Positions 5,737 to 31,758 are shown, counted from the first letter of the stretch. The stretch is 44,456 nucleotides of DNA from Acutalibacteraceae bacterium (GCA_045632165.1 JAZQWD010000082.1:1-44456), one strand, 5' to 3'. Numbers and translations: made by a program. Notes: generated from the sequence alone by a model not told the origin.

Positions 5737-5748
5737 AGGAGTAATAAA

Positions 5749-6576: not shown

Positions 6577-6591
6577 TTTAGGGAGATACTT

Positions 6592-12514: not shown

Positions 12515-12531
12515 AAAGCTATTTCTCCTTT

Positions 12532-13497
12532 TTATTCACCGGTAAGACCAGAACGTTCTATACCTTGTATAAATTGTTTTTGTAATAATGCGTATATAAG
12601 CAACACGGGAAGCACCACTATAAAGGTACCAGCCATTAAAACCGCGTTGTTAATTGTATTTGTGTCAGTAACACCATAATTGGTTTCCAAAACATCGGCG
12701 GAAAAAAGCCTCAAGGTGTCAGAAATGGCCTGTAAGCGCATAGAAAGCATTGCCATATCACTTTTATTAATGTACATGCTCGGCTCGAAGAAATCGCTCC
12801 AATGCCATACAAGTGCCAATACCAAAACCACGATATAAATTGAACGTGCAACAGGAAATACAATATACAAGAACGTGCGTATAAAGCCGCAGCCGTCAAC
12901 ACGGGCGGCTTCTTCGAGCTCACGCGGTTGACTTAAAAAGAATTGGCGGAAAATGTAAATAAACAATGCGCCCTTTAAGCCAAAACCAAAAAAAGCTGGT
13001 ATTGTAAGGGGAAAATATGTATTTAGCCAACCCATATTTGCATACAAAAGATATTGCGGAACAATTATTGTTTGAGGTGGTACAAGCATTGCCAAAATCA
13101 TAAAGAAAAATGCAAACTTGTGTCCAAAACTGTTATAGCGCGCTAAAGAATACCCCGCCATTGAACATGAGATTAACTGACCAAGCGTAGCAAGTGCAGT
13201 AACAAGCACCGTGTTTTTAATATTGTTCCAATAACCCATAATGGTTGCCGCCAGTTTATAATTGCTTAAATGAATACTGCGCGGTATCCACATTACAAGT
13301 GGGTTATTTAGGTCGGCATTACTTTTAATTGAGGTTATTACCATATAAAGAAACGGGTAAAGGAAAATGTAAGCCAAACCAAGCATTACAACATATAAAA
13401 GAACTTTAGGCAATATTTTGCAGACCTTCAGCCAAATATTATGCTTTGGCTTTAACAATGCAGCGCCACCCATGGTATGAAGTTTATTTATTTTCAT
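12532..13497 (-). CDS. Carbohydrate ABC transporter permease (CUT1, MalG-like), second pair
   Basis: It has multiple TM segments and the EAA loop LEEAARVDGCGFIRTFLYIVFPVARS. Confidence 0.85.
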   Translation of the reverse strand: MKINKLHTMGGAALLKPKHNIWLKVCKILPKVLLYVVMLGLAYIFLYPFLYMVITSIKSNADLNNPLVMWIPRSIHLSNYKLAATIMGYWNNIKNTVLVTALATLGQLISCSMAGYSLARYNSFGHKFAFFFMILAMLVPPQTIIVPQYLLYANMGWLNTYFPLTIPAFFGFGLKGALFIYIFRQFFLSQPRELEEAARVDGCGFIRTFLYIVFPVARSIYIVVLVLALVWHWSDFFEPSMYINKSDMAMLSMRLQAISDTLRLFSADVLETNYGVTDTNTINNAVLMAGTFIVVLPVLLIYALLQKQFIQGIERSGLTGE

Positions 13498-13503
13498 TAT
13501 AGC

Positions 13504-14388
13504 TTACCTCCCATACCCTTGGTTGTGTCGCACATAGCTACCGATTATAAGAATTATAAGACCGATAAGCACTAAAATAAACGCAAAATATACCCAACCC
13601 ATTGCCGAAGCATAGCCGTGCATACCGTATTTTATAGTCTGCTCAGAGATATACTCAAGCACCTGATTAGAACTGTCGGTAAATGAAGCAATAACCGTAT
13701 AAACCAAATTAAGCAGTACGATTGGCGAAACCATTGGAAGTGTAATTTTCCAAAAAATTTCATAAGCGTTTGCGCCGTCAATTTTTGCCGATTCATATAA
13801 TGCGGGTGAAATGCCAAGTATTGCCGACAAAAACAAAATTATTTGTACACTGCTTTGCCACAAAAGGCGAATAATTGAACTGAAAAGCATATCTAAAAGT
13901 TCTACAATACTGCTGCCAAGGTATAATAACCATTCACGCGGTATAATACTGCTGTTTGCAAGGGAAATAATTTGTTCATCAACACCCTGTGTCAAAAGCT
14001 GTGTCATTACCTCACCCGTACCAAGCACAAAGGGTAAAATAAATGCCACACGAAAAAAACCTTTACCACGGTCGATTTTACTTAACATAACCGCCAAAAT
14101 AAGTGAAAAAATCACTATTAAGGGTGAATTAATAAGTGTAGACTTAATAACCTCTAACAACCTTGGTACAAAATTTACATCTTCAAAAAACGCTTTTTTA
14201 TAATTTCCAAAGCCCTCAACTAAAATTGAAAAGCCAGTTTTGGTGGGATCTAAATCACCAAAGCTTAAAAGCAATGAAGAAATAACAGGAAATAGAAAAA
14301 ATATGCAAATACCTATCAAAAATGGTGACAGGTAAAACAAGCCTATAAGCTTATCCTTTGTTTGCCTTGAAATTTTTATTTGTTTCAT
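13504..14388 (-). CDS. Carbohydrate ABC transporter permease (CUT1, MalF-like), second pair
   Basis: It has the EAA loop LYESAKIDGANAYEIFWKITLPMVSP and the typical N-terminus LFYLSPFLIGICIFFLFPV. Confidence 0.85.
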   Translation of the reverse strand: MKQIKISRQTKDKLIGLFYLSPFLIGICIFFLFPVISSLLLSFGDLDPTKTGFSILVEGFGNYKKAFFEDVNFVPRLLEVIKSTLINSPLIVIFSLILAVMLSKIDRGKGFFRVAFILPFVLGTGEVMTQLLTQGVDEQIISLANSSIIPREWLLYLGSSIVELLDMLFSSIIRLLWQSSVQIILFLSAILGISPALYESAKIDGANAYEIFWKITLPMVSPIVLLNLVYTVIASFTDSSNQVLEYISEQTIKYGMHGYASAMGWVYFAFILVLIGLIILIIGSYVRHNQGYGR

Positions 14389-14416
14389 AAAACAAAGCTT
14401 TCTCCTTTCCTGTTAT

Positions 14417-16618
14417 TTATGCCGCCAATACAACATAATTTCTTGACGGTACGGTCTTACCTAAGATTTGAGTATCGGTATTACCGTAATTAATTAAAAC
14501 CTTATAACCGTTTTCGTATGTTAATGTAACCACATCGCCGTTACGCTCGTGCATAACTATAGACTGACCAATAACGTCATTTAAGCGACTGCTCATATCC
14601 TTATAAATCTTAAGCGCACGGTCTCCCCATTTGCTAAACTGACTTGAAAATAGCTTGTTATAGCTTGTATCAATAAGCTTTTTAGGACTGTTTTCAGTTA
14701 ATTCAAAGTAAGGCATAGCGCTGTGCTCTATCCACTGTAGACAAAGTAGCTGCAAATCGCCTGACTGATTACCTGCCGTTGTAGTATGGGGAATAACACC
14801 GCTTATAATCATTGAATACCAAGGTATTGCTTCATCGGTCATTTGTTGCATTGAACAAGTCATAGGAATATCATAAACCTGATTAACCGAAGAAAGCATA
14901 TATAAGTTACCGCCCTGACTAGCTGTAACATTTTTATTTTGGCTCATTTCTTGCCATAAAACCATTGTGTCGGTACGGGTAACTGTGCGTGACTTACTGT
15001 AATCGGGATAAACCTTACTACCAACCGACGCCAATGCAATTTCAATCGAATTATACTTTTTAAGCTTAGCAAGTGCACCATTCAACTTGTTTTTAGATAC
15101 TATAGGTGATAAAAGGTAAGCATCCTCGTCTTCGTTTGTAATCGGCATGGTTGATTCCTTAACCGCAACATAACGGTTTTTAGCCGATTCTAAAAGTTCA
15201 ATTTCAAGCAATACATTAAATCTGCTGTCCTTTTTAGCTAGGGCAGAAAGTTTTTTAAGTCCGCCGTTACCGCCTAATTGCGATGCCGGCTTAAAGGATT
15301 TATTAGCCGAAGCATAGCCACCCTTGTTCCAGCCGCGAAGTCTTACCTGAAGGTTTTGAACACCGTCATTTAAAAGGTCTTGACTTATACTTTCAACATA
15401 GTCGAAGCTAGTCATTTCAACAAAGGGGTTAATTAAGGCATTTTGCTTTTCAATACCCATAAACATATTAAGGTAAAGCCCCATTGTGTCAACCGAATTA
15501 TTTTCATTAACAAGCTTATTTGAAACCAAATAGTCACGGTAAGCATTTGCCATACCACTGTAATTTGCCTTGTCATCACGCAAAAGGAAATATGTAACCT
15601 CGCGGTCAAGGGGCAATGGCTTTTCATCAACCTTTACACCAAAGGTTTCATCACCGCCTACAGTACCCGTAATGCTTGATAAAAAGATTTTATACTCATT
15701 GCGGTATACCATTTCAAAGCCCGCACGGTGAATGGGAATTTCCGAATTTGAAACAGCGGTATTAACATTAATACGAGCGCTTTCGCTACCCTTTGTAATA
15801 GCTGCCATAATGCCTAAATCATTATTTTTAATGCCATAAATTGGCAACATTGCGGTTGCCGGCTTATCCTCTTCCAAAATTGTTTCAAGGTTAAGTGTAT
15901 CATAAATATCTAAGGCAATTGCCTGTGTATAGGCATGCTTTTCATCCGCTCTGTCAAAATAACTGATAGCACCGCTACCGTCGGGATAAACTATATAGCC
16001 GTCAGCATTACTAGCACTAGTTACAGCACTGAAAAATGGCAAAACATCAACCGATTTAATAACAAAATCGCCATTTTCTTTTATATCCTTTGAAGGAATA
16101 CTTGCAATAATACGTTCACCGTCTAATTTAATTTCAAGTGCCATTGTCACATCAATAACCTTAAAATCAATTTCAAATCGAATACCATTTTCAAACGAGA
16201 AAGCCTTTATACTATTAAAACCTTCAGCGGAATAGCTTTTCATATTGTTTGCGCGTGTTGCGTCACGCGCAATATAATTCACCGACAAAGCTGACTGCAT
16301 ATAGGACTTCCAAAGATTTGAAACTTCCTCCATACTGCCATAATTTTCTTCGGTCATGCCTGAAAACCACAAATGCTCATTTGTGTTAGCATCTGCAATA
16401 CAAAATATGTTACTTTGCGGATTTAACAATAATGAATAAAAAGAATTACGGCAAATTTCTATATAATTATCGCCCTGCTCAGCTATAGGGGCATACCTTA
16501 CACTTTCTACGGGCGCCTTAGCCATACCGTTAAGGCTTGATGCCTGAGTTGGTAATACCACAACCGCTAAAAGAACTGTCAAAACTATAGCAACACAGCG
16601 AACGTAACGGTTAAACAT
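14417..16618 (-). CDS. Secreted 733-aa protein of unknown function (possibly DUF5696-type; family name from memory only)
   Basis: The signal peptide is MFNRYVRCVAIVLTVLLAVVVLPTQA/SS. I recognise no catalytic motif. The gene lies between the NHL-Yip1 gene and the second permease pair. The coding call is strong (2.2-kb ORF with tight spacing), but the functional call is weak. Confidence 0.5.
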   Translation of the reverse strand: MFNRYVRCVAIVLTVLLAVVVLPTQASSLNGMAKAPVESVRYAPIAEQGDNYIEICRNSFYSLLLNPQSNIFCIADANTNEHLWFSGMTEENYGSMEEVSNLWKSYMQSALSVNYIARDATRANNMKSYSAEGFNSIKAFSFENGIRFEIDFKVIDVTMALEIKLDGERIIASIPSKDIKENGDFVIKSVDVLPFFSAVTSASNADGYIVYPDGSGAISYFDRADEKHAYTQAIALDIYDTLNLETILEEDKPATAMLPIYGIKNNDLGIMAAITKGSESARINVNTAVSNSEIPIHRAGFEMVYRNEYKIFLSSITGTVGGDETFGVKVDEKPLPLDREVTYFLLRDDKANYSGMANAYRDYLVSNKLVNENNSVDTMGLYLNMFMGIEKQNALINPFVEMTSFDYVESISQDLLNDGVQNLQVRLRGWNKGGYASANKSFKPASQLGGNGGLKKLSALAKKDSRFNVLLEIELLESAKNRYVAVKESTMPITNEDEDAYLLSPIVSKNKLNGALAKLKKYNSIEIALASVGSKVYPDYSKSRTVTRTDTMVLWQEMSQNKNVTASQGGNLYMLSSVNQVYDIPMTCSMQQMTDEAIPWYSMIISGVIPHTTTAGNQSGDLQLLCLQWIEHSAMPYFELTENSPKKLIDTSYNKLFSSQFSKWGDRALKIYKDMSSRLNDVIGQSIVMHERNGDVVTLTYENGYKVLINYGNTDTQILGKTVPSRNYVVLAA

Positions 16619-16654
16619 TCTTTAAATCGTCCTTTCCGAAAAATTTTGCAATAA

Positions 16655-18784
16655 CTATATAACAAATTGCGCTTCAATAATAATATCATTTACAAGTTGA
16701 ACGAGACATACAACCAAGGAATAAGCAAACAAAGCAACAAACCATATTAAAACAACCGCAACTAAGGTAACAAGGCAAACCGCTATTGTATGACCCAAAG
16801 TATAGTCGTTCAAATGCCTTACTGCGCGGAACAACAACCAAATCATCCAAATAGTTACACCGTTTACTAAAACGGCATAGAAGCCTGTTTCATTCCAACA
16901 CATAACCTGTGAAAACAAGTCTGCAAGTAAGGTAACTAAAATGTATGGTATTAAAGTAAATCCGCCTGCAATAAAGTTTTGCTTTAATGTAGATTCACCA
17001 TCAAACTGCGCTGAAATTAGAAAAACTGCGCCTATCCAAGTAAGAATTGGTAAAAGAAGCTTTACAAATTCCAAAAACAAGTTCATTTCATCAGGATCAA
17101 TATCCTGCATAGGATAATGCACCGTAAACACAAAGAAGATTCTAACAGCAAAGGCCAGAATAACAAGCACAGCAGGTACAGCCACACTAATACGACCTCT
17201 GTTATACTTTATAGCTTCAAATGTGCGAACGGGATGATTTAAAATATTCATACCAAAAAGCAGACTATCCTTAAAGCCAAGGGTATGCTTTCGGCCAAGT
17301 TCAAAATCAACCAAAACCTTTTTTGAAGAACCCATAACAAGCCTAAGTCCAACCACTAAGGCCACCGCAAAAGCAATTACTATAAGAGCGATAAGCCAAA
17401 AGTTTTGCTTTATTATTTCATAACGAAACTCCGAAAAAGCTTTTGAATATTCCAATCGGTCTTCGGAATATTTGAAATGCTCCATAGCGGTTTTCCAGTC
17501 CCCCGCCTTCATAGCGGTTAGACCCGCACCGAAGTGTGTCATAGGATAGGTTTCATCAATTTCAAGCACCGCTTTCCATAAAGCGTCAGCTTCCTCATAT
17601 TTGCCTTCGTTATAGGCAATGGTTGCTTTTTGTACTGTTGTGATAAAATTAGAAGGCTCTAATACCGTAATATTACCGTAGCTTTGGTCCAGAACATACA
17701 AGCGACCTTCATCATCCACTACCATAGATGACGGTAGATAGAATTCACCCTGATCAGTACCCTTGCCACCAAATACTGCAAGCAGATTTCCTTGCGCATC
17801 GTACTGATAAATTTTACAGGTATTGGCCTCGATAACAGTTACCGTACCATTTTTGTCAACGCAAATGTCGGCAAATATAGCAGGCATACCTTCTTCGGTA
17901 ACCTCACCGTAGGTAAAGCTTTTAGACTGAATATTACCGCTAAACAAACGGCTTACAAGGGTTTTAATGGCTTGCCAATCGTTAGCAAGTGTGCCGACCT
18001 TGCGATAAATATTATTACCAACAGTGTTTAAAACCTTAATTTGTCCTTCTTGAGTATCACGGCTAACAGCATAAATCATACCGCGGCTGTCAAGACAAAA
18101 ATTAGTGTAGGGGTCAGCGTTACGCTTTTCAATACTTTGCTTTTGTACATCAGATGCCACAAGGCGTAAAAGCCAGTCAGTAAAGTCAAAACCAATATCG
18201 GACTGACCAATAAAACCGCGGAAGGTATTTTGGCTGTCCAAAAGCATTATATTTTCTCCCATAAGTACATAAACCGCACCTGTGGCAGACATACCGATTT
18301 TAGTAGGTGAATAGGTTTGAACGTCCGAAAGCATGGGTGATTCAGGCATACCGTATGTATTAACAGTTTCACCCTTTGGATTTAACTGAACAATGCGCGA
18401 ATTGCCCGTATCGCTTATATAAAGGTCGCCCGTTTCGGAAACAAAAACACCCTGTGGTTCGTTAAATGCTATGCCGTCGCTTTCGGTAATTTGTGCTACA
18501 AATTCACCTTTTTTTGTCATTTTAACCACACGGTTATTTTTAGTATCAGCCACATATAAATAACCCTGATTATCCAAGAACAAGTCGGTCGGTTGGTTAA
18601 AATGGCTTATTTCACCATTATTTGTAACGGTGTTAATACTGTACGAATAGTCATACACTTCCGGTATTGCTATAATTTCGCCGTTATTAATCGTATAATT
18701 CGTTTCCTTTGCCGATACTGTAACCGAAAACAGTAACGAAAGTATACAAAGCAAAACTATAACCCTGCTTATTCGTTTCTTCAT
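16655..18784 (-). CDS. Exported NHL-repeat beta-propeller, TPR-like linker and C-terminal Yip1-type polytopic membrane domain, fused in one protein
   Basis: NHL-like blades include FNQPTDLFLDNQGYLYVADTKNNRVVKMTKKGE, FNEPQGVFVSETGDLYISDTGNSRIVQLNPKGE and FYLPSSMVVDDEGRLYVLDQSYGNITVL. A TPR-like stretch is YNEGKYEEADALWKAVLEID...AMKAGDWKTAMEHF. About 6 hydrophobic helices follow in the last 250 aa. I prefer the ATG at 18784 (MKKRISRVIV..., GGAAAGGA RBS) over the track start at 18808. Confidence 0.65.
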   Translation of the reverse strand: MKKRISRVIVLLCILSLLFSVTVSAKETNYTINNGEIIAIPEVYDYSYSINTVTNNGEISHFNQPTDLFLDNQGYLYVADTKNNRVVKMTKKGEFVAQITESDGIAFNEPQGVFVSETGDLYISDTGNSRIVQLNPKGETVNTYGMPESPMLSDVQTYSPTKIGMSATGAVYVLMGENIMLLDSQNTFRGFIGQSDIGFDFTDWLLRLVASDVQKQSIEKRNADPYTNFCLDSRGMIYAVSRDTQEGQIKVLNTVGNNIYRKVGTLANDWQAIKTLVSRLFSGNIQSKSFTYGEVTEEGMPAIFADICVDKNGTVTVIEANTCKIYQYDAQGNLLAVFGGKGTDQGEFYLPSSMVVDDEGRLYVLDQSYGNITVLEPSNFITTVQKATIAYNEGKYEEADALWKAVLEIDETYPMTHFGAGLTAMKAGDWKTAMEHFKYSEDRLEYSKAFSEFRYEIIKQNFWLIALIVIAFAVALVVGLRLVMGSSKKVLVDFELGRKHTLGFKDSLLFGMNILNHPVRTFEAIKYNRGRISVAVPAVLVILAFAVRIFFVFTVHYPMQDIDPDEMNLFLEFVKLLLPILTWIGAVFLISAQFDGESTLKQNFIAGGFTLIPYILVTLLADLFSQVMCWNETGFYAVLVNGVTIWMIWLLFRAVRHLNDYTLGHTIAVCLVTLVAVVLIWFVALFAYSLVVCLVQLVNDIIIEAQFVI

Positions 18785-18814
18785 ACCGAAAAATCCTTTC
18801 CGTTGCATTCCTAA

Positions 18815-19735
18815 TTATCCCTTAATACCAGAATGCACCATAGTTTGCATAACCTTTTTTTGCGAAATCATAAATAAAATAACCGTAGGTAGAGTCATAA
18901 GTAAGGTTGCCGCTGCAACCGCACCCGCACGTCCAATTGTGGCCGAGCCGCCCGAAATTGTATTAAGGGCAAGAGGTAAAGTTTTTAAAGCCTGGTCATT
19001 AAGATAAATTAACGGTGAGAAATAATCATTCCACGAGCTTACAAAGCTAAACACCATTAAGGTGGACCAAGCCGGTGTAAGTAAAGGCATTATAATCTGC
19101 CAATAAATACGCATTTCGCCACAGCCGTCAATACGCGCAGCTTCAATAAGCGTATTTGGAATTTGTTCAACAAACTGTTTTACAAGGAAAAAGTTATATG
19201 CCGTTGCAATTGAGGGAATGATAAGCGCCCAATAACTATTTATAAGCCCAACCGAATTAATAATTAAATAACGCGGTATTTGTGTAACAAAGGGCGATAT
19301 CATAAGCGCTGCCAAAATTATTTGAAACCATAGCTTACTTCCCGGTGGGTTGTGCTTGACCATACCATAAGCACCAAGTGTGCTTACAACAATGGTACCG
19401 GTAACCGTGCCAATTGTGACTAAAGCGCTGTTAAACACATAACGTGAAAAAGGCACCGCCGAGCTCGACATAGACAGTAGCAAATCGCTAAAGTTTTTTA
19501 AGGTTGGGTTACGCACAAAAAATTGCGGCGGAAATATAAATAATTCACTAAGGGGTTTGAAGGCGGTGCTTACCAAATAAACCAAGGGTAACATGGTAAA
19601 GCTAACCACCAATATCATTAAAGCATATACCGCGGCCCACGCGCCTTTTGAACGCAAGCGCGCTGCGGAAAGTGGGCGTTTTCTTTTAAATGTTGCCATT
19701 TCTTTTACCATCTTTCCATCATTATTCGCTTTCAC
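18815..19735 (-). CDS. Carbohydrate ABC transporter permease (CUT1, MalG-like), first pair
   Basis: It has the EAA loop LIEAARIDGCGEMRIYWQIIMPLLTP. The start is uncertain: GTG 19735, ATG 19711 and ATG 19699 are all possible. With the GTG start it overlaps the upstream permease by 14 nt. Confidence 0.85.
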   Translation of the reverse strand: MKANNDGKMVKEMATFKRKRPLSAARLRSKGAWAAVYALMILVVSFTMLPLVYLVSTAFKPLSELFIFPPQFFVRNPTLKNFSDLLLSMSSSAVPFSRYVFNSALVTIGTVTGTIVVSTLGAYGMVKHNPPGSKLWFQIILAALMISPFVTQIPRYLIINSVGLINSYWALIIPSIATAYNFFLVKQFVEQIPNTLIEAARIDGCGEMRIYWQIIMPLLTPAWSTLMVFSFVSSWNDYFSPLIYLNDQALKTLPLALNTISGGSATIGRAGAVAAATLLMTLPTVILFMISQKKVMQTMVHSGIKG

Positions 19736-20636
19736 TCAAAGCGTGTGTTACCACACGGCCTACAATAAAGGTAATAAGGAACAATACCGTTGCCACAGCT
19801 GATGCGTAACCCATTTGGAAGCGGATAAACGCATAGTCATAAAGATGGGCAACTATGGTATGACCTGCATAGCTCGGGCTTGGTAAACCCGAAACCGAAA
19901 CTGCAACATCAAAAGCGCCAAATGCATTTGTAACTGCAGTAATTGCACCAAAAAGAAGCTGCGGCTTCATTTGTGGCAGGGTTAAATATTTAAGCTCTTG
20001 AAAACGGCTTTTAACACCGTCAATTGCGCCCGCCTCGTAAAGCGATTTATCAACATTTTGAAGACCTGCCAAGAACACAAGGAAGCCTGTACCCATACTC
20101 ATCCAAACCGAAATTATAATAATAACGGGCAATATGGTTTTAGGGTTTTGCGTCCATAAAACAGGATCGTCAATAAGTCCCATGCTGATGAGCACATTAT
20201 TAATTAAGCCATATTGGTCGGATGAGAAAAAGTAAAGCCAAACCGAGCTCATAGCAACACCGCTTGTAATAGATGGTGCATAAAATGCCAAAGCAAAAGC
20301 GTTGCGCATTTTTAGTTGGTTTAAAACCCAAGCCACAAAAAAGCTCATTAAATAACCGACAGGGCCAACAATTACTGCAAAAATCAAGGTGTTTTTCATT
20401 GCGGTCCAAAATACCGAATCATCAACAAGCATAAGCTCGTAATTTTTAAGCCCAACAAAATGTGCTGTCTGAAACATATTATAGTCGGTAAAGCTTAAGC
20501 CAATAGCTATGGCCGCGGGGGCAAGTACAAATATTGTAAACAAAATTGCAAAAGGAAGTTGCATAGCGTAGCCAATCCAATTTTTGCGAACAAAGCGCAC
20601 TGCATTGGCTTTAAAACTGTTTTTTGATTTTGTCAT
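19722..20636 (-). CDS. Carbohydrate ABC transporter permease (CUT1, MalF-like), first pair
   Basis: It has the EAA loop LYEAGAIDGVKSRFQELKYLTLPQMKP. An AAAGGAGG RBS is present. Confidence 0.85.
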   Translation of the reverse strand: MTKSKNSFKANAVRFVRKNWIGYAMQLPFAILFTIFVLAPAAIAIGLSFTDYNMFQTAHFVGLKNYELMLVDDSVFWTAMKNTLIFAVIVGPVGYLMSFFVAWVLNQLKMRNAFALAFYAPSITSGVAMSSVWLYFFSSDQYGLINNVLISMGLIDDPVLWTQNPKTILPVIIIISVWMSMGTGFLVFLAGLQNVDKSLYEAGAIDGVKSRFQELKYLTLPQMKPQLLFGAITAVTNAFGAFDVAVSVSGLPSPSYAGHTIVAHLYDYAFIRFQMGYASAVATVLFLITFIVGRVVTHALSESE

Positions 20637-20651
20637 TTTGCAACCTCCTTT

Positions 20652-23582
20652 TTATTTTTTATTTGGTTTTACGTTGTATTCTTCTTGTTTGTTGCGTAGC
20701 TCACGGTTAATTTCCTTAACGGCATTTTCCAATGCATCACGGGGTGAAGACGCACCCGAAACAACAACGTCGGTAAAAGCGTTAGTAACATAACGACCCG
20801 TATAATAACCACCAAGCACTACAGGGGTTTCCTGTGCCCATTTCCATTGTTCTTGAATAACCGCAAGGTCGCCCTTGTTCCAGTCAAGCGATAAAAATGC
20901 ATTAACGTTTGCGGTATTCCAACGGGCTTCTACACCTACAAGCGCTTCCATTTCTCTTGCATAATCCATTTGGGTGGTTTCCTGACTCCACCACTTAAGG
21001 AATTCCCAACCCGCCTTATATTTGGGGTCGCGGTCGTTTTTAAGAAGCATATCACATTCGCCTGCAATACCGCCACATGAACGGTTTATACTGCCATCCT
21101 GTTGCTTGATACCCGGAAGCGGCGCAATAGCCCATTTACCGATAAGCTCGGGTGCCGAGGTGCAAAGCTGAATGTAAAGCGAATAGTTCCCCACGCCTAT
21201 TGGCATTTCACCTGTACGGAAACGGTTAAAGAAGTTTGCACTTACAGGCGAACTGTAATGGGTAAACATTTCGGTATATTCGCGGAATGCTAAGAATGCC
21301 TGTGGCGTATTAAGTGCCGAGGTATAGCCATCCTCACTGTAATAAGCACCGCCGTATTGATACAAAAACTGTGTAAAGTCCATATTTTGGTAATATGAGA
21401 GGCCGTTTTCAAACAACTGCGGTAAGGTATAGTCGTACAATTCCTGACGTGTATTGGGAAGCATTATGTTATACTTTTCAATTACATCGCTACGGTAGAA
21501 AAGACAACTGAAATTCATTGTTTCGGGCATAGCATAAACGCCGCCCTCGTATGTAAAGGGAGTAATAATTTGCGGAACAAAGCGTGATGCAATTTCCTTA
21601 TAATCGGAAAATTGTGTTAAATCTACTGCGGCATCACGAATTGCAAATTCAACAGGCGAGCCCGAAGCCACACCCATTGCCACGTCAGGCGCTGTGCCCG
21701 ACGTCATTGAAAGCATAAGCACGTTGGCGCTGCCCGCATTAAGCTGTGAAGCGGGTACAACGTTTACGTTTACTAAAATACCGGTTTTTGGGGTAAAGCT
21801 TTCGTCAGCCATTTCCTTAATTATTTCCGCCCATTCGTTACCGCGTGCAATCCAAACATCGATAGTTTCGGTGATTTCGGTATCCTCGCCTAAAATACCA
21901 CCAACGTTGTTATAGTCCTTAACAAAGGAAATAAGGAAGTTTTTAATTGTACTGCGAAGCTTTTGGAAGAAATTAGATTTTCTTACAGGTATTTTAACGT
22001 CGGCCGTAGCAACTGTAAATTCGTCAATAAGCAAGGGCTGTGACTGTAATTCAAGATACCACGAGCCAAGATTTGTTTGCGCTTGGGTAAGTTGGGAATA
22101 TTTTTTAGCGATGGAAAAGGGATTATCCCTCATTCTTTTCAGCTGTTGTATAATAGATATCAAGTTACTACCCATACTGGTCGATTTGCCTGAAATAGCA
22201 TAAATTCGGTCATACTGTTCCTGCAAATCAGTAATAAGACGGTTCATATCGTCTTCTAAAGTGGGAATAAACTTGAAAAATTGATAGTCATAGTTGGGGT
22301 CGGGGTCACTGCCTGTTAATTTTGTAATATCAAGCAGCATTTCCGACAAAATTGTCATATCGTCATAAAGGGTGTGTATAATATCAGTTAATTCACCCAT
22401 TGTGACAGTCATTGTCATTGTGTGAGGGCCTTCTTCAAGATAGAAAAGGTAGTCACCATTATCGTCACCCAAGGTAACGGTTTGCCAATCTGTGCTGTAA
22501 TCAAAGCAAATTGATTCGAGTTCACTAAATGGTATTTCATTATCGATTTTAATTGTACGGTAAGACGGAAGACCGTCATTCCAGGACTGCTTTACACGAA
22601 ATGCCATACGGTAAAGGCCTGTTTCTTTCACATTAAATTCATAAGTAATCAATTGATTACCCTGTCGCCAACGGTAACCGCCCACGGTATTAAATACACG
22701 GTATCCATAAGCTATAGGCTTAGTTTCGGGGTCGCCGTCACTTTCAAGACGAATGGTAGCATCGTTACGGTTTACCATACTGTCTTCTGCTTGAAATGTT
22801 AATAACTGCTCCTTAATTTGTGATTTAGGATATGAAGCCGAAACCTTCTGATAGCTTTCAACCGGTATGAATGGTTCAACTACCAATTCAGAAATTGCCA
22901 TATCCTGTGAAGCATAGCCAAGGGTTAAAGTATGTTCGCCTATAGTCAAGGGGAAAATTAGCGGCGTTGTATAAAAACCGCCACTATCGCGCAAATAATC
23001 CTGTTGCCAACAAGCTATCGTTTCAACCGAAGGGCGCACCTCATCACCGATACTGTTTACCCTAACCTCGCCCGAATCCTTGAACGAATGATAAAAAGGT
23101 ATTGTGTCAGCTTCAAAACAGGGTGTCTTGCCATCAATAAGTAAAGAGCGAACCGCCTTACTTCCCGAAGTCTCTAAAACTGTGTAATTGGCTTTTATTA
23201 TATACCAGCCTTCAGTATTAATGGTAAATTTCCATTGTATATCACCTGTTTTAGCATCGGATAGAATTGCCTTTTCAGCATTACCGTTAATATCACTTTT
23301 AAGGGTAATGCCATCTGCGGCGGACGCAGCCGCCGCAGATAAAACTACCTTGTCCGTACCTTTAACATACGGATTGTTTTTTAAAACCTCTGAAAGAAAG
23401 GGCGCGCGGGTTCCGTCATCACTTAGAGTAATGTTTGTGCTGTCACCTTTGTCGCCGACAGTCGCCGTATAGGCCTTATCCGCTGAAGCGGAAATTGATA
23501 CCATAGTCATTAGCATAGCAGCTACACAACCTACTGATATCAGGCGCCTTAGAAGAAAACGCCTTTCGGGACTTGCTTTCAT
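20652..23582 (-). CDS. Giant (976 aa) extracellular solute-binding protein: signal peptide, two CBM6/35-like beta-sandwich modules, a helical linker and a C-terminal family-1 SBP domain
   Basis: The signal peptide ends ...SISASA/DKA and has no lipobox. Two modules show the pattern WKFTINTEGWYIIKANY...LLIDGK...LTIGEHTLTLGY and ITYEFNVKETGLYRMAFRVKQ...IKIDNE...WQTVTL..LEEGPHTMTMTV, which is typical of galactose-binding-like CBMs. The last 400 aa or so look like a CUT1 SBP (...VWIARGNEWAEIIKE...YAMPETMNF...GKWAIAPLPG...). Confidence 0.7.
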   Translation of the reverse strand: MKASPERRFLLRRLISVGCVAAMLMTMVSISASADKAYTATVGDKGDSTNITLSDDGTRAPFLSEVLKNNPYVKGTDKVVLSAAAASAADGITLKSDINGNAEKAILSDAKTGDIQWKFTINTEGWYIIKANYTVLETSGSKAVRSLLIDGKTPCFEADTIPFYHSFKDSGEVRVNSIGDEVRPSVETIACWQQDYLRDSGGFYTTPLIFPLTIGEHTLTLGYASQDMAISELVVEPFIPVESYQKVSASYPKSQIKEQLLTFQAEDSMVNRNDATIRLESDGDPETKPIAYGYRVFNTVGGYRWRQGNQLITYEFNVKETGLYRMAFRVKQSWNDGLPSYRTIKIDNEIPFSELESICFDYSTDWQTVTLGDDNGDYLFYLEEGPHTMTMTVTMGELTDIIHTLYDDMTILSEMLLDITKLTGSDPDPNYDYQFFKFIPTLEDDMNRLITDLQEQYDRIYAISGKSTSMGSNLISIIQQLKRMRDNPFSIAKKYSQLTQAQTNLGSWYLELQSQPLLIDEFTVATADVKIPVRKSNFFQKLRSTIKNFLISFVKDYNNVGGILGEDTEITETIDVWIARGNEWAEIIKEMADESFTPKTGILVNVNVVPASQLNAGSANVLMLSMTSGTAPDVAMGVASGSPVEFAIRDAAVDLTQFSDYKEIASRFVPQIITPFTYEGGVYAMPETMNFSCLFYRSDVIEKYNIMLPNTRQELYDYTLPQLFENGLSYYQNMDFTQFLYQYGGAYYSEDGYTSALNTPQAFLAFREYTEMFTHYSSPVSANFFNRFRTGEMPIGVGNYSLYIQLCTSAPELIGKWAIAPLPGIKQQDGSINRSCGGIAGECDMLLKNDRDPKYKAGWEFLKWWSQETTQMDYAREMEALVGVEARWNTANVNAFLSLDWNKGDLAVIQEQWKWAQETPVVLGGYYTGRYVTNAFTDVVVSGASSPRDALENAVKEINRELRNKQEEYNVKPNKK

Positions 23583-23596
23583 AAAATTTCATCCTT

Positions 23597-24871
23597 TCAG
23601 ATAATGTCAGTTAATTTAACACGTGTTAATTCCATAACTTCTTTTTGTTTAGAATAGAAAATATACATATAATCGTCCTGAATTAAAACTTCAGGATAAG
23701 CATAATAACCGTTCTTTGCCCAGCCGCTTTGCTGAAGCTCGTACTTTTCGTCACGCAAGATATATTCACGGTCCCAGTTATAGCCGTCGTCAGAAATTTG
23801 AAGAACTAACGGATAGCGGTTAGAGCCATAGCGTGAGGTGCCTACAAAATAGAAACGACCGTCGGGCAAGCGACCAAAGTTAGCCATTGTAGCTTCGGTT
23901 GCAAAGTTTGTGGGGTAAACGTCGGTAAAGGTTTCGCCGTTGTCATAGCTTTCGGTCATCCAAATGCGATTGGTGTCACTGCGTATCATAACGTGAATAA
24001 CATAATCGTCGGTTTGATACCAAGAAGCTTCTTGAAGAATATTTGCGCCACGGTCAAAACCTGACTGCTCCTGTTCTTTGGTTAAGCGGCCCACCTTCCA
24101 CATAAGCGAGCCGATATCATCGGTGTATATAACACCTGTACCCGCGCCCGCAAAATAACGGCCTGTAAGCGATTTCTTAGGTGATTCGTTAGCGCCTATA
24201 GAGACAACTGCGGGTTTACTCCAGGTTTTGCCATCGGTAGTGGATACAACCTTTGAAACGTATTTATAATACTTAATAATTTGCTTTATCCAGGTACCGT
24301 CAGCGCGGAAGTTATCAGGACCAAAATGAGCTTCACGATAATAGTAATAAAGCTTATTGGGAGTTGATACGAAAAATCCGCCCTGGTTTGCAGTCATACC
24401 AAAACCGCCGTCAACCGAAGGTCCTACAACTACCGGCTTGCTCCAATTATAAAAATCAGACGAGCTTGAAATTACAACAGATTGACCGGGAGAATCCTCG
24501 TCCTTAGCTGCCTGACCCCAAGCGGCATAAAACTTACCCTTAAAGTAAGCAAAGCCCGGTTGATGCTTAAAGCCGTTTTCTGACTCAAAATCAGAAACGA
24601 CAACCTTTTCTGAAGCAATTTTTTTGCTGTTTTTAAGCGCCTTTGAATTATCAACCTTTACAGCCGACTGCTGTATTGTAAGCTTTGGTGTAACAGGAAA
24701 TGTATCCTTCCATTCTTCGGGATTATATGTAACGGTAGAGCCCGAAGGTGTATCCGATGGATTATCGCCATTTGAGCCCGAAGAATTACCGCCGCAGCCC
24801 GCCAATGCCGATAACACTAAAATCATTGCCAGTCCGCGAAGCGCCACGCCTTTAAAACTAATAGGTTTCAT
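23597..24871 (-). CDS. Surface lipoprotein with a BNR/Asp-box sialidase-fold beta-propeller
   Basis: The lipobox is LSALAGC, followed by a Gly/Ser/Asn-rich linker. Asp-boxes are STTDGKTWS, SYDNGETFT, ISDDGYNWD and a degenerate SSSDFYNWS. No F/YRIP motif is present. I prefer ATG 24871 (MKPISF...) because the track GTG at 24880 lies inside a GAAAGGTGA RBS. Confidence 0.7.
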   Translation of the reverse strand: MKPISFKGVALRGLAMILVLSALAGCGGNSSGSNGDNPSDTPSGSTVTYNPEEWKDTFPVTPKLTIQQSAVKVDNSKALKNSKKIASEKVVVSDFESENGFKHQPGFAYFKGKFYAAWGQAAKDEDSPGQSVVISSSSDFYNWSKPVVVGPSVDGGFGMTANQGGFFVSTPNKLYYYYREAHFGPDNFRADGTWIKQIIKYYKYVSKVVSTTDGKTWSKPAVVSIGANESPKKSLTGRYFAGAGTGVIYTDDIGSLMWKVGRLTKEQEQSGFDRGANILQEASWYQTDDYVIHVMIRSDTNRIWMTESYDNGETFTDVYPTNFATEATMANFGRLPDGRFYFVGTSRYGSNRYPLVLQISDDGYNWDREYILRDEKYELQQSGWAKNGYYAYPEVLIQDDYMYIFYSKQKEVMELTRVKLTDII

Positions 24872-24886
24872 TATTTTCACCTTTCT

Positions 24887-26410
24887 TTAAGAATTACATT
24901 CCTTAAGAATTTCTTCAACGCCAAGTTTTTTCATTTCAGCTAAGAAGCTGTCAAATTCGGTAAGGCTGCGTGTGCCCTTAACAAATTTGATAATTTGTTG
25001 CTTAGCATAGGTGTTAATAGTATCGTAACGGGCAATCTTTTCGATACCAATATCAGGCTTGGTTTCACGCTTAGTTTCAAAGTTGCCTGCTTCAAAGTCC
25101 TTATCGTAAATATTAGCGTATTTCTTATCTAATTCATCTGTTTCATAATCTTCCCAAACAACACCCATATTATCATAGAAAGGCGCGAAGCAAAGCTGAC
25201 CAAGGCCTAAATCAGACATCCACTGATAGTTGGGCTGTGCAGCCTTTTCGTACTTCTTCCAAACAGACTTCGGAACATAAGGGTTGCCGTCCTTGTCAAG
25301 CTTATAGGTTTCGTCAAGCTTACCGTAAGTGTTGATAAGCATAGCTTCTTCAGAATAGCACCAGTCCATAAATTCTAAAAGTCTGTCGGGATATTTTGCC
25401 TTTGCGCTAAGGCAGTACTGAGTACCATAGTTGGTAAGCTGTGTCCAAGCAAGACCTTCCTTCTTGCCAAAAGAGTTGGTCATAAGGGGTAATGAGTTAA
25501 TGGTTGCATAGGGGTTAGTTTTTCTTAACTGTTCGGTTTGCATACTTGCAAGCACGCCGTTGTCTATCCAGAAGAAAACGTTGCCTGCCTGTACCTTCTT
25601 TTCAAAGCTGCTAGAGTCTGACATATCAAACTTGGGGTCAAGAATACCTTCGTTATAGGTTCTGATCATAAACTGTAATACGGTACGGAATTCTTCTTCC
25701 ATAACACCGCTTACATATTTTTTAGAATCCTCATCATAATGGATAAGGTAGTTCATACCTAAAGCCTGTGTCCAGTATTCAAGCAAATAACTACCAGAGC
25801 GGGTTGCAAAAGGTGTGCTGTTGGGATAAAGCTTTTTAAGCTTTTTCATAGTTTCAAACCATTCATCCCAAGTTTTAGGTGCTTTAAGATTATGGTTATC
25901 AAGTGTATCGTAACGGATAGCTAATTGCAAAGGGGTATCGGGATAATCGATATGGTGTAAACCAAATCCTAAATATTTGCCGTCAACCTTAGTGGATTCA
26001 AGACCTTCAATATCCTTAGTAAGCTTCCAATAATTAGGGGTCTTCTCTTCCATAATATTTGTAAGGTCCATAAACAAAGCACTGTTAAAGGTTTGAAGCT
26101 CGGAATGGGTGAGCATTGTAATATCATACATTTGACCCGATGCGTTTGCCGCAGCAAGCTTGGTTTGTGCTTCAGTACCTACACCGATATCAACGTCAAG
26201 CGTTACGCCTGTTGCTTCAGTAATAAGATTCCACTTCATAGCATCTGTTTTAATGGGCTGATATACGTGTTCCTTTAAAAATACGGTATAGGTTACGGGC
26301 TTGTCGGTATAAGCCGCAGTGTTGCTGCCACCCTTTTCTCCACCGCCGCAGCCTGCAAAAATGCAAGCAACCAAGCACATAGCTAAAACTATCGAAAGTA
26401 TTCGTTTCAT
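24887..26410 (-). CDS. Extracellular solute-binding lipoprotein (large family-1 SBP, about 507 aa)
   Basis: The lipobox is IFAGCGG. The size and composition are typical of Firmicute oligosaccharide SBPs. An AGGAG RBS is present. Confidence 0.8.
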   Translation of the reverse strand: MKRILSIVLAMCLVACIFAGCGGGEKGGSNTAAYTDKPVTYTVFLKEHVYQPIKTDAMKWNLITEATGVTLDVDIGVGTEAQTKLAAANASGQMYDITMLTHSELQTFNSALFMDLTNIMEEKTPNYWKLTKDIEGLESTKVDGKYLGFGLHHIDYPDTPLQLAIRYDTLDNHNLKAPKTWDEWFETMKKLKKLYPNSTPFATRSGSYLLEYWTQALGMNYLIHYDEDSKKYVSGVMEEEFRTVLQFMIRTYNEGILDPKFDMSDSSSFEKKVQAGNVFFWIDNGVLASMQTEQLRKTNPYATINSLPLMTNSFGKKEGLAWTQLTNYGTQYCLSAKAKYPDRLLEFMDWCYSEEAMLINTYGKLDETYKLDKDGNPYVPKSVWKKYEKAAQPNYQWMSDLGLGQLCFAPFYDNMGVVWEDYETDELDKKYANIYDKDFEAGNFETKRETKPDIGIEKIARYDTINTYAKQQIIKFVKGTRSLTEFDSFLAEMKKLGVEEILKECNS

Positions 26411-26441
26411 AATAAAGCTCCTATCATATATTTTTCATAAT

Positions 26442-26478: not shown

Positions 26479-26488
26479 AGTATTACTT

Positions 26489-31688: not shown

Positions 31689-31703
31689 TCTCGCCATTAT
31701 GCA
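31689..31703 (-). promoter_or_regulatory. Candidate shared operator or promoter element TGCATAATGGCGAGA (read on the minus strand), upstream of the ribokinase-led array
   Basis: The same sequence, GCA(A/T)AATGGCGAGA with 13/14 identical, occurs in the matching orientation at 40727-40740, upstream of the SIS/FucU/BNR/repeat-protein operon. It is GC-rich against an AT-rich intergenic background. Confidence 0.3.
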
Positions 31704-31710
31704 ACTAATG

Positions 31711-31739
31711 ATGGACATTTTTTGTCTTTTGTGTTATAA
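31711..31739 (+). promoter_or_regulatory. Sigma-A-type promoter for the AraC gene (TGGACA, 17-nt spacer, TATAAT, with a TGn extension)
   Basis: tggaca (31711-31716) is followed by a 17-nt spacer ending in tgt, then tataat (31734-31739). The GAGGTGA RBS and TTG start lie just downstream. Confidence 0.45.
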
Positions 31740-31758
31740 TGCACTTGAGGTGAAAGAT

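Follow-up and report, generated by a model that had tools for sequence, protein, structure and literature searches.

Our analysis of a 44,456-nt stretch of DNA from an Acutalibacteraceae bacterium (hereafter "the window", at its full length) reveals seven minus-strand genes that belong to a real, strictly conserved module that is very widespread in Gram-positive bacteria. On balance, we favor the view that the seven genes, together with an orphan lipoprotein solute-binding protein (SBP), form one co-inherited functional module, a carbohydrate ABC-import apparatus for Gram-positive-type envelopes, having two complete type I translocators (F1G1 and F2G2). We infer that the module is best read as a chassis for glycan import that includes a scaffold and a glycosidase-like accessory and draws its power from an ATPase in trans, and that the chassis is substrate-agnostic, since its core is kept while the receptor and the enzymes change.

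A tightly packed seven-gene array

The seven open reading frames (ORFs) are present on the minus strand exactly at the coordinates, and in the order, listed in an earlier sequence-only reading of the window (Table 1). The successive intergenic gaps from the giant SBP to G2, computed from the coordinates, are 15, −14, 6, 36, 28, and 6 nt, reproducing the range of −14 to 36 nt given in that reading. The seven genes are part of a minus-strand array that extends from 31630 to 7662 and is tightly packed over its whole length. The proposed domain search of the seven proteins was run with Pfam and recovered DUF5696, Yip1, SBP, and permease domains.

Table 1. Features of the module and its neighbors in the window
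Feature	Coordinates	Strand	Length (aa)	Evidence and remarks
AraC-type regulator	8299..9189
G2, MalG/GlcU-type permease	12532..13497	-	321	EAA loop EAARVDG at aa 196
F2, divergent MalF/UgpA-type permease	13504..14388	-	294	EAA loop ESAKIDG at aa 199
DUF5696 protein, GH129/GH101-like fold	14417..16618	-	733	Pfam, AF2, Foldseek
NHL beta-propeller/TPR/Yip1 membrane protein	16655..18808	-	717	Pfam, TM scan, AF2
G1, MalG/UgpE-type permease	18815..19735	-	306	EAA loop EAARIDG at aa 198
F1, MalF/UgpA-type permease	19722..20636	-	304	EAA loop EAGAIDG at aa 201
Giant SBP	20652..23582	-	976	First in conserved order
BNR_2/BT_1020-like beta-propeller lipoprotein	23597..24880	-	427	Lipobox LAGC
Orphan lipoprotein SBP	24887..26410	-	507	SBP_bac_1 (Pfam); lipobox FAGC at N-terminus
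AraC-type regulator	31699..32670

Module order is conserved across distant lineages

Neighborhood scans were seeded independently with DUF5696 (80 genome loci) and with NHL-Yip1 (80 metagenome loci). Both scans reveal the same gene order: giant SBP, F1, G1, NHL (with Yip1, fused or split), DUF5696, F2, and G2. The full canonical order is present in 62 of the 80 DUF5696-seeded genome loci, with all but four of the others truncated by contig ends, and every NHL-seeded metagenome locus having a Yip1 part falls in the same module (25 full loci plus truncated loci). In all, 87 full loci with the seven- or eight-gene order, and dozens of partial loci, were found across distant lineages, with median intergenic gaps of −14 to +18 nt. 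The recurrence in Clostridia and Paenibacillus that the sequence-only reading had suggested is borne out and extends further: the order is kept in Clostridia, Lachnospiraceae, Paenibacillus, and Cohnella, and single genomes of Spirochaetales, Chloroflexota, Dictyoglomaceae, and Limnochordales have it as well. Even the DUF5696 homologs that were most distant among those tested (24–27% identity) lie inside the module, and, in two cases, a single MAG contains two divergent module copies (28–33% identity). The survey thus shows that NHL-Yip1 and DUF5696 are conserved together with the giant SBP and the two permease pairs, as that reading had proposed. Recurring in >120 independent loci, the seven-gene arrangement is far beyond chance.

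A conserved giant SBP is accompanied by a variable orphan SBP and variable enzymes

The giant SBP contains the family-1 solute-binding protein of a CUT1 importer. Specifically, SBP_bac_8 (residues 594–876) is its only Pfam domain, and a profile of its orthologs matches Lin1841 (5ysb; E = 3.6e-35) and many other sugar SBPs. The protein comprises an SPase-I-type signal, two tandem beta-sandwich domains (residues ~100–400), a helical region (residues ~400–560), and the CUT1 SBP domain (residues 570–976); a lipobox is rare, being present at 7 of 60 loci. Two beta-sandwich-like segments are related by internal duplication (E = 6e-4). The "CBM" label that had been given to the N-terminal 560 residues needs qualifying, since its only basis is this duplication, a profile match to CITase 5x7g in its CBM35 region (E = 2.6e-7), and sub-threshold similarity to Golvesin_C in 21 of 29 orthologs and to CBM_35 in 8 of 29. 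Mean pairwise identity of the giant-SBP domain is 46–47% across loci with differing CAZymes, a degree of conservation that would be more in keeping with a ligand common to the loci, or with a structural role, than with capture specific to each locus.

The orphan lipoprotein SBP is located <400 nt from the module in 44 of 60 canonical complete loci, with a lipobox in 40 of the 44. The seven genes of the sequence-only reading therefore stand, but as part of a larger functional unit that takes in this protein. The mean pairwise identity of the orphan SBP is 0.22, versus 0.47 for the giant-SBP domain; extra permease genes occur near only 2 of 37 loci with an orphan SBP, and a nearby orphan SBP is absent from 10 of 47 well-flanked loci. 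Judged from these comparisons, the orphan SBP is a variable, probably specificity-giving receptor that accompanies the module; it could, instead, be a sensor for adjacent AraC-type regulators. The BNR_2 protein, encoded between the orphan SBP and the giant SBP, is a predicted window-specific surface enzyme outside the conserved core. It is also present in an 88%-identical relative (L081), and similar ORFs occur in few other loci, never at the position held in the window.

The flanking genes differ from locus to locus. SBPs account for 35 of 97 immediate flank genes, with the others including GH30, GH26, GH10, GH53, GH5, pectinesterase, and sulfatase genes; PL11 lies beside some modules, and GH43/GH51/GH127 beside others. 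In the window, the neighbors of the module encode BNR/sialidase-like proteins, a DHDPS-family lyase, YhcH, GH43, a GDSL esterase, and ribokinase. With GH43, two BNR_2 proteins, the GDSL esterase, and AraC regulators in a same-strand array, the window has the composition of a Gram-positive polysaccharide utilization locus (PUL). This is not true of every module copy. In particular, two copies (L162 and L166) lie among housekeeping genes, with neither CAZymes nor an orphan SBP nearby (L162 beside LytR_cpsA_psr, nadD, and leuS; L166 beside a ribosomal protein operon), and therefore fit a pure PUL-chassis picture poorly.

These two copies, and the strong conservation of the giant-SBP domain and F1/G1 irrespective of flanking enzymes (mean identity 0.46–0.53), are points in favor of a module that imports one common substrate in all hosts, either recycled glycopolymer of the host's own wall or capsule or a ubiquitous plant oligosaccharide, with the CAZyme neighbors being incidental. 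We consider this unlikely, given that divergent paralogous copies with 28–33% identity occur in one MAG, that modules form operon-like arrays with differing polysaccharide-specific enzymes (PL11, GH26, GH10, GH53, and GH43/51/127), and that a hypervariable orphan SBP is attached to the module.

The NHL-TPR-Yip1 protein combines an extracellular propeller with a membrane bundle

Pfam identifies NHL repeats (68 bits), a TPR, and Yip1 (PF04893) in the 717-aa protein. The Yip1 match, at residues 521–692, scores 46.2 bits against a cut-off of 28.6, and the membrane domain had thus been named correctly. The protein has a signal or anchor (residues 5–27), an extracellular propeller (residues 38–385), a TPR (residues 387–447), a TM helix (residues ~470–488), a cytoplasmic segment, and a five-helix Yip1 bundle (residues 543–716), the last corresponding to five hydrophobic helices after residue 542. 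The AF2 model has a pLDDT of 84.5. PDB profile searches and Foldseek return NHL propellers (TRIM71 and PknD) and TPRs only; the assignment as a six-bladed NHL propeller is based on profile matches to Pizza, TRIM71, and PknD and on Foldseek TMt values of 0.75–0.79 to NHL domains. The NHL and Yip1 parts form one fused protein in 35 canonical loci, whereas 52 encode them as separate NHL (~485 aa) and Yip1 (~208 aa) proteins. In the loci surveyed, Yip1-type proteins occurred only within the module, and Pfam detected no MacB/FtsX or MFP domain in the module. All non-permease parts of the module have an extracytoplasmic or membrane location.

NHL propellers also serve as sensor domains, as in the matched PknD (1rwi), which raises the question of whether the propeller and the SBPs constitute a sensing device that detects extracellular glycans, with the transporter-like part acting as a transceptor that controls AraC-type regulators. 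Many loci are flanked by regulators of the AraC family or by hybrid regulators (32 AraC-like ORFs); AraC-type regulators are also present in this window, and the orphan SBP often adjoins regulators. We nevertheless regard a sensing device as quite improbable: NHL-Yip1 has no recognizable cytoplasmic output domain, only a segment of ~50 residues between TM helices; selection maintains both full translocators, with their EAA loops intact, in >120 loci; and several modules have no nearby regulator.

DUF5696 has a GH129-like fold with a variable nucleophile position

The 733-aa protein matches DUF5696 (PF18952) over profile positions 9–612 of 612, with 435.4 bits against a cut-off of 25.6, in agreement with the assignment made in the sequence-only reading. 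The family comprises ~4,000 clusters at 50% identity. The protein is exported, as the sequence-only reading had it, but is not freely secreted: orthologs are membrane-tethered, through a TM anchor or a lipobox (14/60).

In the AF2 model (pLDDT 85, pTM 0.87), the N-terminal anchor or signal is followed by a beta-sandwich, then a (beta/alpha)8 barrel, and finally a C-terminal beta domain. Foldseek places 5opq first (E = 1.6e-30) and 5wzn second (E = 1.3e-25), followed by GH101, GH36, and GH31 enzymes, and the TM scores of 0.61–0.70 to 5opq and 5wzn indicate the three-domain GH129 fold, composed of a beta-sandwich, a TIM barrel, and an Ig-like domain. DagB has three domains: a distorted beta-sandwich at the N-terminus, a TIM barrel in the center, and a C-terminal beta domain (PMC5698469). 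An HMM search against the PDB detects 5wzn at 1e-6, and GH129 fragments carry precomputed PF18952 matches.

The active site is less clearly preserved. The canonical nucleophile (NagBb D435, equivalent to DagB D486), the one catalytic Asp that these two enzymes have in common, is aligned opposite S531 in the window, in an HMM alignment of low posterior confidence; the column is Asp in 54 of 199 homologs (27%). Residues D213, D539, D595, N617, D621, and E631 are conserved in DUF5696 homologs, and D539 (86% conserved), which is near S531, could potentially substitute for the aligned nucleophile. The role in glycan "processing" that had been proposed thus finds support in the GH129/GH101 glycosidase fold, but not in the canonical nucleophile, which is not conserved. 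Hydrolytic processing by DUF5696 may not occur, since the aligned catalytic Asp is Ser here and is variable in the family.

Two permease pairs and an ATPase presumably encoded elsewhere

All four permeases match BPD_transp_1 in Pfam, F2 weakly (28 bits), and all four EAA loops reported as intact were located (Table 1). The best NCBIfam matches are UgpA/GlcT-like for F1 and F2 (F-type), UgpE-like for G1, and GlcU-like for G2 (G-type). The F and G membrane subunits, defined by BPD_transp_1 and an EAA loop, are thus present twice, as F1/G1 and F2/G2. F1 scores 479 bits against the F1 HMM, compared with 73–188 bits for other CUT1 F permeases of the same loci, and F2 scores 353 bits against the F2 HMM, compared with 69 bits against the F1 HMM. 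More generally, module permeases typically score ~270–525 bits against their own HMMs, and neighboring ordinary CUT1 permeases 73–212 bits. These scores place all four permeases in module-specific clades, apart from the ordinary CUT1 permeases of the same loci.

The components of the module diverge together, with the pairwise-identity matrices of nine components correlating at r = 0.83–0.94. Rare circular permutations (L032, L072, L089, and L110) split the block comprising the giant SBP, F1, and G1 from the block comprising NHL-Yip1, DUF5696, F2, and G2; the permuted L072 is the only complete locus in which DUF5696 does not adjoin an F2-type gene. Although either half, taken alone, looks like a normal SBP-F-G or X-F-G unit, and these permutations separate the halves, a chance juxtaposition of two ordinary, independent CUT1 transporters with two unrelated exported proteins, all uncoupled, is contradicted by the comparative data and highly improbable, in view of the tiny gaps and the order shared by 87 full loci of distant lineages, the co-divergence of all components, the module-specific permease clades, the near-constant DUF5696–F2 adjacency, and the restriction of the Yip1-type protein to the module.

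No ABC ATPase gene of the MalK/MsmX type, or any other, is present anywhere in the 44-kb window, and a MalK-sized ATPase gene lies beside the module in only one of ~125 loci. CUT1 systems share ATPases of the MsmX/MsmK type. That the operon lacks an ATPase gene is consistent with a shared ATPase, and the ATPase for the module is presumed to be encoded elsewhere and to act in trans.

Proposed mechanism

In the glycan-import chassis that we favor, the module proteins would act as one physical machine for capture, processing, and import. Locus-specific surface enzymes, in the window the BNR lipoprotein and possibly a 1385-aa repeat protein, would cut the polysaccharide, and the resulting oligosaccharides would be captured by the variable lipoprotein SBP and by the conserved giant SBP, whose helical stalk bears two CBM-like domains. 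Both SBPs would hand cargo to the two translocators, energized by a shared MsmX/MsmK-type ATPase encoded elsewhere. Membrane-tethered DUF5696 would be positioned at the translocators, trimming cargo or, where the nucleophile is lost, serving as a non-catalytic receptor. By analogy to YknW, NHL-TPR-Yip1 may be a scaffold in the membrane, on which the parts, the non-lipidated giant SBP among them, are assembled and held in place.

A more specific version, which we advance only tentatively and consider rather doubtful, is a single membrane supercomplex in which Yip1 bridges the translocators, NHL-TPR docks the giant SBP, and DUF5696, a pseudo-glycosidase in most lineages, serves as a second, non-SBP receptor that feeds F2G2. 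The DUF5696 gene lies ahead of F2-G2, in the place that an SBP gene would take. If true, the supercomplex would be a monoderm functional counterpart of SusCD and would allow the uptake of unusually large or branched glycan fragments.

Comparison with known systems

In the library searched, no paper contained "DUF5696" or "PF18952" and nothing described the module; no characterized homologous system emerged, in accord with the statement of the sequence-only reading that the combination lacked experimental characterization. A common route of complex-carbohydrate uptake in these bacteria may therefore still be unstudied.

The module resembles CUT1 importers (MalEFG, MsmEFG, and LplABC) in having a family-1-fold SBP, F/G permeases with EAA loops, and no operon ATPase. 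It differs in having two translocators rather than one; in the size of its SBP (~980 aa), which is extended at the N-terminus by ~560 aa and usually lacks a lipid anchor; and in having obligatory NHL-TPR-Yip1 and DUF5696 genes between its permease pairs. The layout is thus not the classical three-gene SBP-F-G unit, as the sequence-only reading had recognized: the conserved core has seven or eight genes, including both permease pairs together with two non-transporter genes.

DUF5696 shares with GH129, GH129-like, and GH101 enzymes (NagBb 5wzn, DagB ZGAL_3152 5opq, EngBF, and SpGH101), its top Foldseek matches (E = 1e-30 to 1e-17), a distorted beta-sandwich, a TIM barrel, and a C-terminal beta domain. 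Identity to these enzymes is 11–12%; unlike them, DUF5696 has another conserved acidic set (D213, D539, D595, D621, and E631), is always encoded within an ABC-transporter module, and is membrane-tethered.

Bacillus YknW, a Yip1-family protein, is encoded with the YknXYZ ABC transporter and is needed for, or modulates, assembly of that complex (PMC4887032). The module likewise encodes a Yip1-family membrane protein with an ABC transporter. However, YknYZ, which protects against a peptide toxin, is an exporter of the MacB type with a membrane-fusion protein, whereas the partners in the module are type I importer permeases with BPD_transp_1 domains, so the four-component YknWXYZ arrangement is not reproduced; furthermore, a large NHL-TPR ectodomain is either fused to the Yip1 domain of the module or paired with it.

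By analogy only, the module resembles SusC/SusD in combining a conserved transport core with differing CAZymes and a fast-evolving surface glycan-binding lipoprotein, and in occurring as more than one divergent copy per MAG (two cases). The two are not homologous: SusC is a TonB-dependent transporter of the outer membrane, whereas the module is a cytoplasmic-membrane ABC system of monoderm-type envelopes. The alginate "superchannel" of Sphingomonas sp. A1, in which the AlgM1M2SS importer takes up very large glycans with two SBPs (AlgQ1/Q2) and extra envelope proteins, is Gram-negative, has a single translocator and its own co-encoded ATPase, and has no Yip1, NHL, or GH129-like parts. Its analogy with the module lies in an ABC importer that works with two SBPs and extra envelope proteins.

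Two permease pairs within one seven-gene module

The ORF positions confirm the seven contiguous minus-strand genes proposed in the sequence-only reading. They encode a giant solute-binding protein (SBP), two MalF-type permeases (F1 and F2), two MalG-type permeases (G1 and G2), an NHL-TPR-Yip1 protein, and a DUF5696 protein. The genes are separated by 15, −14, 6, 36, 28, and 6 nt, and they belong to a more extended, closely packed array on the minus strand that runs from 31630 down to 7662. An EAA loop is present in all four permeases. A promoter and terminator scan of positions 12001–32000 found sites no more numerous than in shuffled sequence.

Features of the module and of neighbouring genes in the window
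Feature	Position	Strand	Annotation
GtaA_6_Hairpin/DUF5127/DUF4964 protein	3826-5736	+	within 1961-7617
GDSL esterase	7662-8306		
YhcH	10169-10627		
BNR_2 protein	10643-11587	-	sialidase-like propeller; no signal peptide
DHDPS-family lyase	11591-12514		
G2	12532-13497	-	BPD_transp_1 (Pfam), G-type; NCBIfam best match GlcU
F2	13504-14388	-	BPD_transp_1 (Pfam), F-type; NCBIfam best match UgpA
DUF5696 protein	14417-16618	-	733 aa; full-length DUF5696 member, 435 bits (Pfam)
NHL-TPR-Yip1 protein	16655-18808	-	717 aa; NHL repeats, TPR, Yip1 domain (Pfam); N-terminal signal/anchor; extracellular NHL propeller aa 38-385; TPR aa 387-447, immediately above TM helix ~aa 470-488; short cytoplasmic segment; five-helix Yip1 bundle aa 543-716
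G1	18815-19735	-	BPD_transp_1 (Pfam), G-type; NCBIfam best match UgpE
F1	19722-20636	-	BPD_transp_1 (Pfam), F-type; NCBIfam best match UgpA
Giant SBP	20652-23582	-	976 aa; SBP_bac_8 confined to last 400 residues (Pfam)
BNR_2 lipoprotein	23597-24880	-	sialidase-like propeller; between orphan SBP and giant SBP
Orphan SBP	24887-26410	-	lipoprotein
1385-aa protein	26489-30646	-	N-terminal signal, C-terminal TM anchor
Ribokinase	30668-31630		
GtaA_6_Hairpin/DUF5127/DUF4964 protein	36674-38581	+	within 36674-39716
Putative dehydrogenase	38601-39716	+	weak BT_2158-like glycoside 3-dehydrogenase similarity
RbsD/FucU	41460-41891		
BNR_2 protein	41948-43072	+	sialidase-like propeller

Conservation of the module across genomes

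We scanned one genome per species with a DUF5696 homolog profile, which returned at least 551 confirmed relatives, and took the best 80 of these loci with 10-kb flanks, labelling their ORFs by the window proteins. Because ORF calling in related loci was mechanical, start codons and some gap values there are approximate. The full same-strand order (giant SBP, F1, G1, NHL(+Yip1), DUF5696, F2, G2) is present in 62 of these best 80 loci, with NHL and Yip1 encoded by a single gene in 27 and by two adjacent genes in 35. Apart from four exceptions, the other loci are clipped by a contig end yet consistent with this order; the exceptions comprise two circular permutations and two F1 relocations. Carriers among the best 80 loci are Lachnospiraceae and other Clostridia, Paenibacillus, Cohnella, and Caldicoprobacter, plus a single genome each labelled Limnochordales, Spirochaetales, Chloroflexota, and Dictyoglomaceae.

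A reverse survey of metagenomes, seeded on 16 closer NHL-Yip1 sequences, recovered the same module at every locus having a Yip1-containing match (25 complete, two permuted, and the rest incomplete); the remaining matches were generic NHL proteins lacking Yip1. Three DUF5696 homologs that rank among the most distant (24–27% identity) also lie within the module. Pairwise-identity matrices for nine components across 60 complete loci co-diverge, with r of 0.83–0.94, and HMMs of the module permeases score their own clade at typically ~270–525 bits, versus 73–212 bits for ordinary CUT1 (type I ABC sugar importer) permeases of the same loci. The order surveys, the co-divergence, and the permease clades thus place the NHL-Yip1 and DUF5696 genes in one co-conserved set with the two permease pairs; the contrary possibility, which the sequence-only reading had named as fatal to its proposal, fails in the neighbourhood surveys.

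Co-inheritance extends to two complete type I importer membrane units, a giant SBP, a membrane-tethered glycosidase-fold protein, and a propeller-TPR-Yip1 protein, and we regard it as virtually certain that the seven genes constitute one conserved functional unit. At 50% identity and E ≤ 1e-30, the DUF5696 family resolves into ~3,955 clusters. Two single metagenome-assembled genomes (MAGs) each contain two modules, with DUF5696 pairs 28% and 33% identical; since many loci come from MAGs, such per-genome copy counts carry a binning caveat.

Neighbours of the module

The module lacks an ATPase of its own and is usually accompanied by a hypervariable lipoprotein SBP. ABC ATPase motifs almost never occur beside it (one MalK-sized ORF in ~125 loci), and no ABC ATPase is encoded in the window. 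The only such module locus is L088, in which a 374-aa MalK/MsmX-sized ABC ATPase (3902–5026, plus strand) lies directly upstream of the giant SBP, making it a candidate pointer to the cognate ATPase family.

Family-1 SBPs account for 35 of the 97 immediate same-strand neighbours of the module, and of 47 well-flanked loci, 35 have an additional SBP immediately next to the module. Extra permease genes are nearby in only 2 of the 37 loci having an extra SBP within three genes. An orphan SBP lies within 400 nt of the module in 44 of 60 loci (23 upstream, 21 downstream), and 40 of these 44 orphan SBPs carry a lipobox. Their mean pairwise identity is 0.22; the corresponding value for the giant protein's SBP domain is 0.47. 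In the window, a BNR_2 lipoprotein separates the orphan from the giant SBP, and the same holds at L081, a locus whose DUF5696 protein is 88% identical.

Other neighbours vary by locus and include GH30, GH26, GH10, GH53, GH5, pectinesterase, sulfatase, beta-helix pectate-lyase-like proteins, and GH43/GH51/GH127, with a PL11 rhamnogalacturonan lyase beside the module in one Lachnospiraceae clade. Module-bearing loci include ones directed at pectin, mannan, xylan, galactan, arabinan, and host-type glycans. A few modules lie amid housekeeping genes. Two copies are outside any CAZyme cluster: in Caldanaerobius fijiensis DSM 17918 (L162), a rearranged module, in which a 970-aa SBP follows F2 and two 468-aa SBPs lie upstream, is flanked by nadD-like, LytR_cpsA_psr, and leuS genes, and at L166 the module, with a 1013-aa DUF5696 protein, immediately precedes the ribosomal protein S10 operon. 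These two contexts are hard to reconcile with a role purely bound to polysaccharide utilisation loci (PULs).

In the window, GH43 is also among the neighbours, and the BNR_2 proteins and nearby genes, taken together, hint that a nonulosonic, keto-deoxy, or furanose-containing glycan is catabolised. A PDB sequence search with the cytoplasmic BNR_2 protein at 10643–11587 returned no match. Repeated gene pairs of a xylose-isomerase-like TIM-barrel protein and a GFO_IDH_MocA oxidoreductase lie beside the first GtaA_6_Hairpin protein, and a GFO_IDH_MocA/GH109_C oxidoreductase lies beside the second, an arrangement suggesting that glycosides may be cleaved oxidatively, by a 3-keto-glycoside route, in parallel with the ABC module. 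The 1385-aa protein is outside the conserved module. It comprises seven tandem repeats of ~175–200 aa, each terminating in WAG[AV]F, and has no match in Pfam, NCBIfam, or the PDB; the equivalent-position gene at L081, clipped at the locus end, encodes a 1387-aa product with a faint DUF4979 match. The 1385-aa protein is possibly a locus-specific glycan binder at the cell surface.

Fold and candidate catalytic residues of the DUF5696 protein

The structural model of the DUF5696 protein (pLDDT 85, pTM 0.87) comprises a beta-sandwich, a (beta/alpha)8 barrel, and a C-terminal beta domain, the same three-part architecture reported for the GH129-like enzyme DagB (ZGAL_3152, 5opq; PMC5698469). The DUF5696 family profile matches the GH129 enzyme NagBb (5wzn) by sequence with an E-value of 1e-6, and lower-ranked matches in a fold search include GH101, GH36, GH31, and GH97. 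Asp435/Asp486 is the sole catalytic residue common to NagBb and DagB (PMC5698469). In an HMM alignment to DagB, which is of low confidence and covers the nucleophile only, Ser531 of the window protein is opposite this Asp, and the column contains Asp in 54 of 199 homologs. Residues D213, D539, D595, N617, D621, and E631 are 85–99% conserved in the same 199 homologs. The DUF5696 protein thus has a glycosidase-like fold, and any catalysis by it is putative.

We considered and rejected assignment to GH129: membership is not demonstrable, because the nucleophile test failed despite the common fold. A search seeded with a NagBb fragment and aimed at a GH129 profile returned short fragments only. 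GH129 NagBb-like fragments (P0377–P0407) have precomputed matches to both PF18952 (DUF5696) and PF12905 (GH101), so there is already overlap between the Pfam DUF5696 model and GH129. The label "domain of unknown function" conceals a relationship to the glycosidase superfamily.

DUF5696 proteins are ~730–770 aa in many Clostridia loci and ~850–910 aa in many Paenibacillus/Cohnella loci (within L047–L060) and some Clostridia loci; one metagenome locus (L100) has an ORF of 1930 aa starting at 10001. This size range implies lineage-specific extra domains.

The NHL-TPR-Yip1 protein and the giant SBP

The AlphaFold model of the NHL-TPR-Yip1 protein (pLDDT 84.5) and a hydropathy scan agree on its layout. 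Sequence and fold searches found solved relatives, such as TRIM71 and PknD, for the propeller and TPR only, and the Yip1 membrane domain matched no solved structure by sequence or fold. Both the Yip1 and the NHL domain are genuine members of their families.

The N-terminal 560 residues of the giant SBP contain two mutually similar beta-sandwich-like segments followed by a helical region. The segments resemble CBM35/Golvesin_C at sub-threshold level only; the sequence-only reading's firm call of a "CBM-fused SBP" is accordingly reduced to "CBM35/Golvesin_C-like, sub-threshold". The signal peptide is of the SPase-I type, and only 7 of 60 orthologs have a lipobox; DUF5696 orthologs, by contrast, have a TM anchor or lipobox.

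A model for module function

We propose a composite explanation, to which we give slightly better than even credence, comprising an import chassis, a variable SBP, a scaffold, and a DUF5696 accessory. Two observations lead us to infer that the module may import oligosaccharides: the kinship between its SBP domain and CUT1 oligosaccharide binders, and the location of most copies within CAZyme loci. Following the MsmX/MsmK paradigm, a shared ATPase would act in trans. Specificity would come from the variable lipoprotein SBP, with the core as a reusable chassis. The NHL-TPR-Yip1 protein would be an assembly scaffold and may hold the non-lipidated giant SBP in place, and DUF5696 may act at the second translocator to trim or hold cargo. 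Two sub-units are suggested by the parallel between the gene orders DUF5696-F2-G2 and SBP-F1-G1, and by the rare permutations, which split the module exactly between [SBP F1 G1] and [NHL-Yip1 DUF5696 F2 G2].

A sensing device would fit the regulators that often adjoin the module and the capacity of NHL propellers for a sensor role, but the NHL-Yip1 protein lacks an output domain, and the two translocators have both stayed intact. The high conservation of the core and the housekeeping neighbours of some copies would suit a system for a common substrate or for recycling; against this stand the paralogous copies, the range of CAZyme contexts, and the hypervariable SBP. Chance adjacency of two ordinary transporters is contradicted by the comparative data, being ruled out by the two independent neighbourhood surveys.

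Significance and comparison with known systems

ABC importers are the main route of complex-carbohydrate uptake in Gram-positive gut and soil bacteria and are conventionally viewed as simple SBP-F-G units. The module is a strictly conserved and very common seven- to nine-gene variant in which two obligatory accessory proteins accompany two translocators. If the module acts as a single machine, the annotation of Gram-positive PULs changes, with DUF5696, Yip1, and the giant SBP becoming marker genes, as susC/susD are for Bacteroidota PULs; the bacterial Yip1 and DUF5696 families gain a function; and large-oligosaccharide import by monoderms gains a testable model. The module is amenable to direct testing in cultivable Paenibacillus.

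The literature searched contained no mention of DUF5696 or PF18952 and, judged on titles and abstracts, no published description of the module. The only precedent found there was YknW, the Yip1-family accessory of the ABC transporter YknXYZ (PMC4887032), and the module is not an exporter of the YknWXYZ type. It probably works like a CUT1 ABC importer, having the SBP and permeases of that family, but differs in lacking a local ATPase and the three-gene layout. Its likeness to SusCD is by analogy only, namely a chassis with a variable lipoprotein that recurs beside different CAZymes. We classify the module as a putative ABC-importer-based glycan uptake system of conserved, multi-component, and unprecedented architecture.
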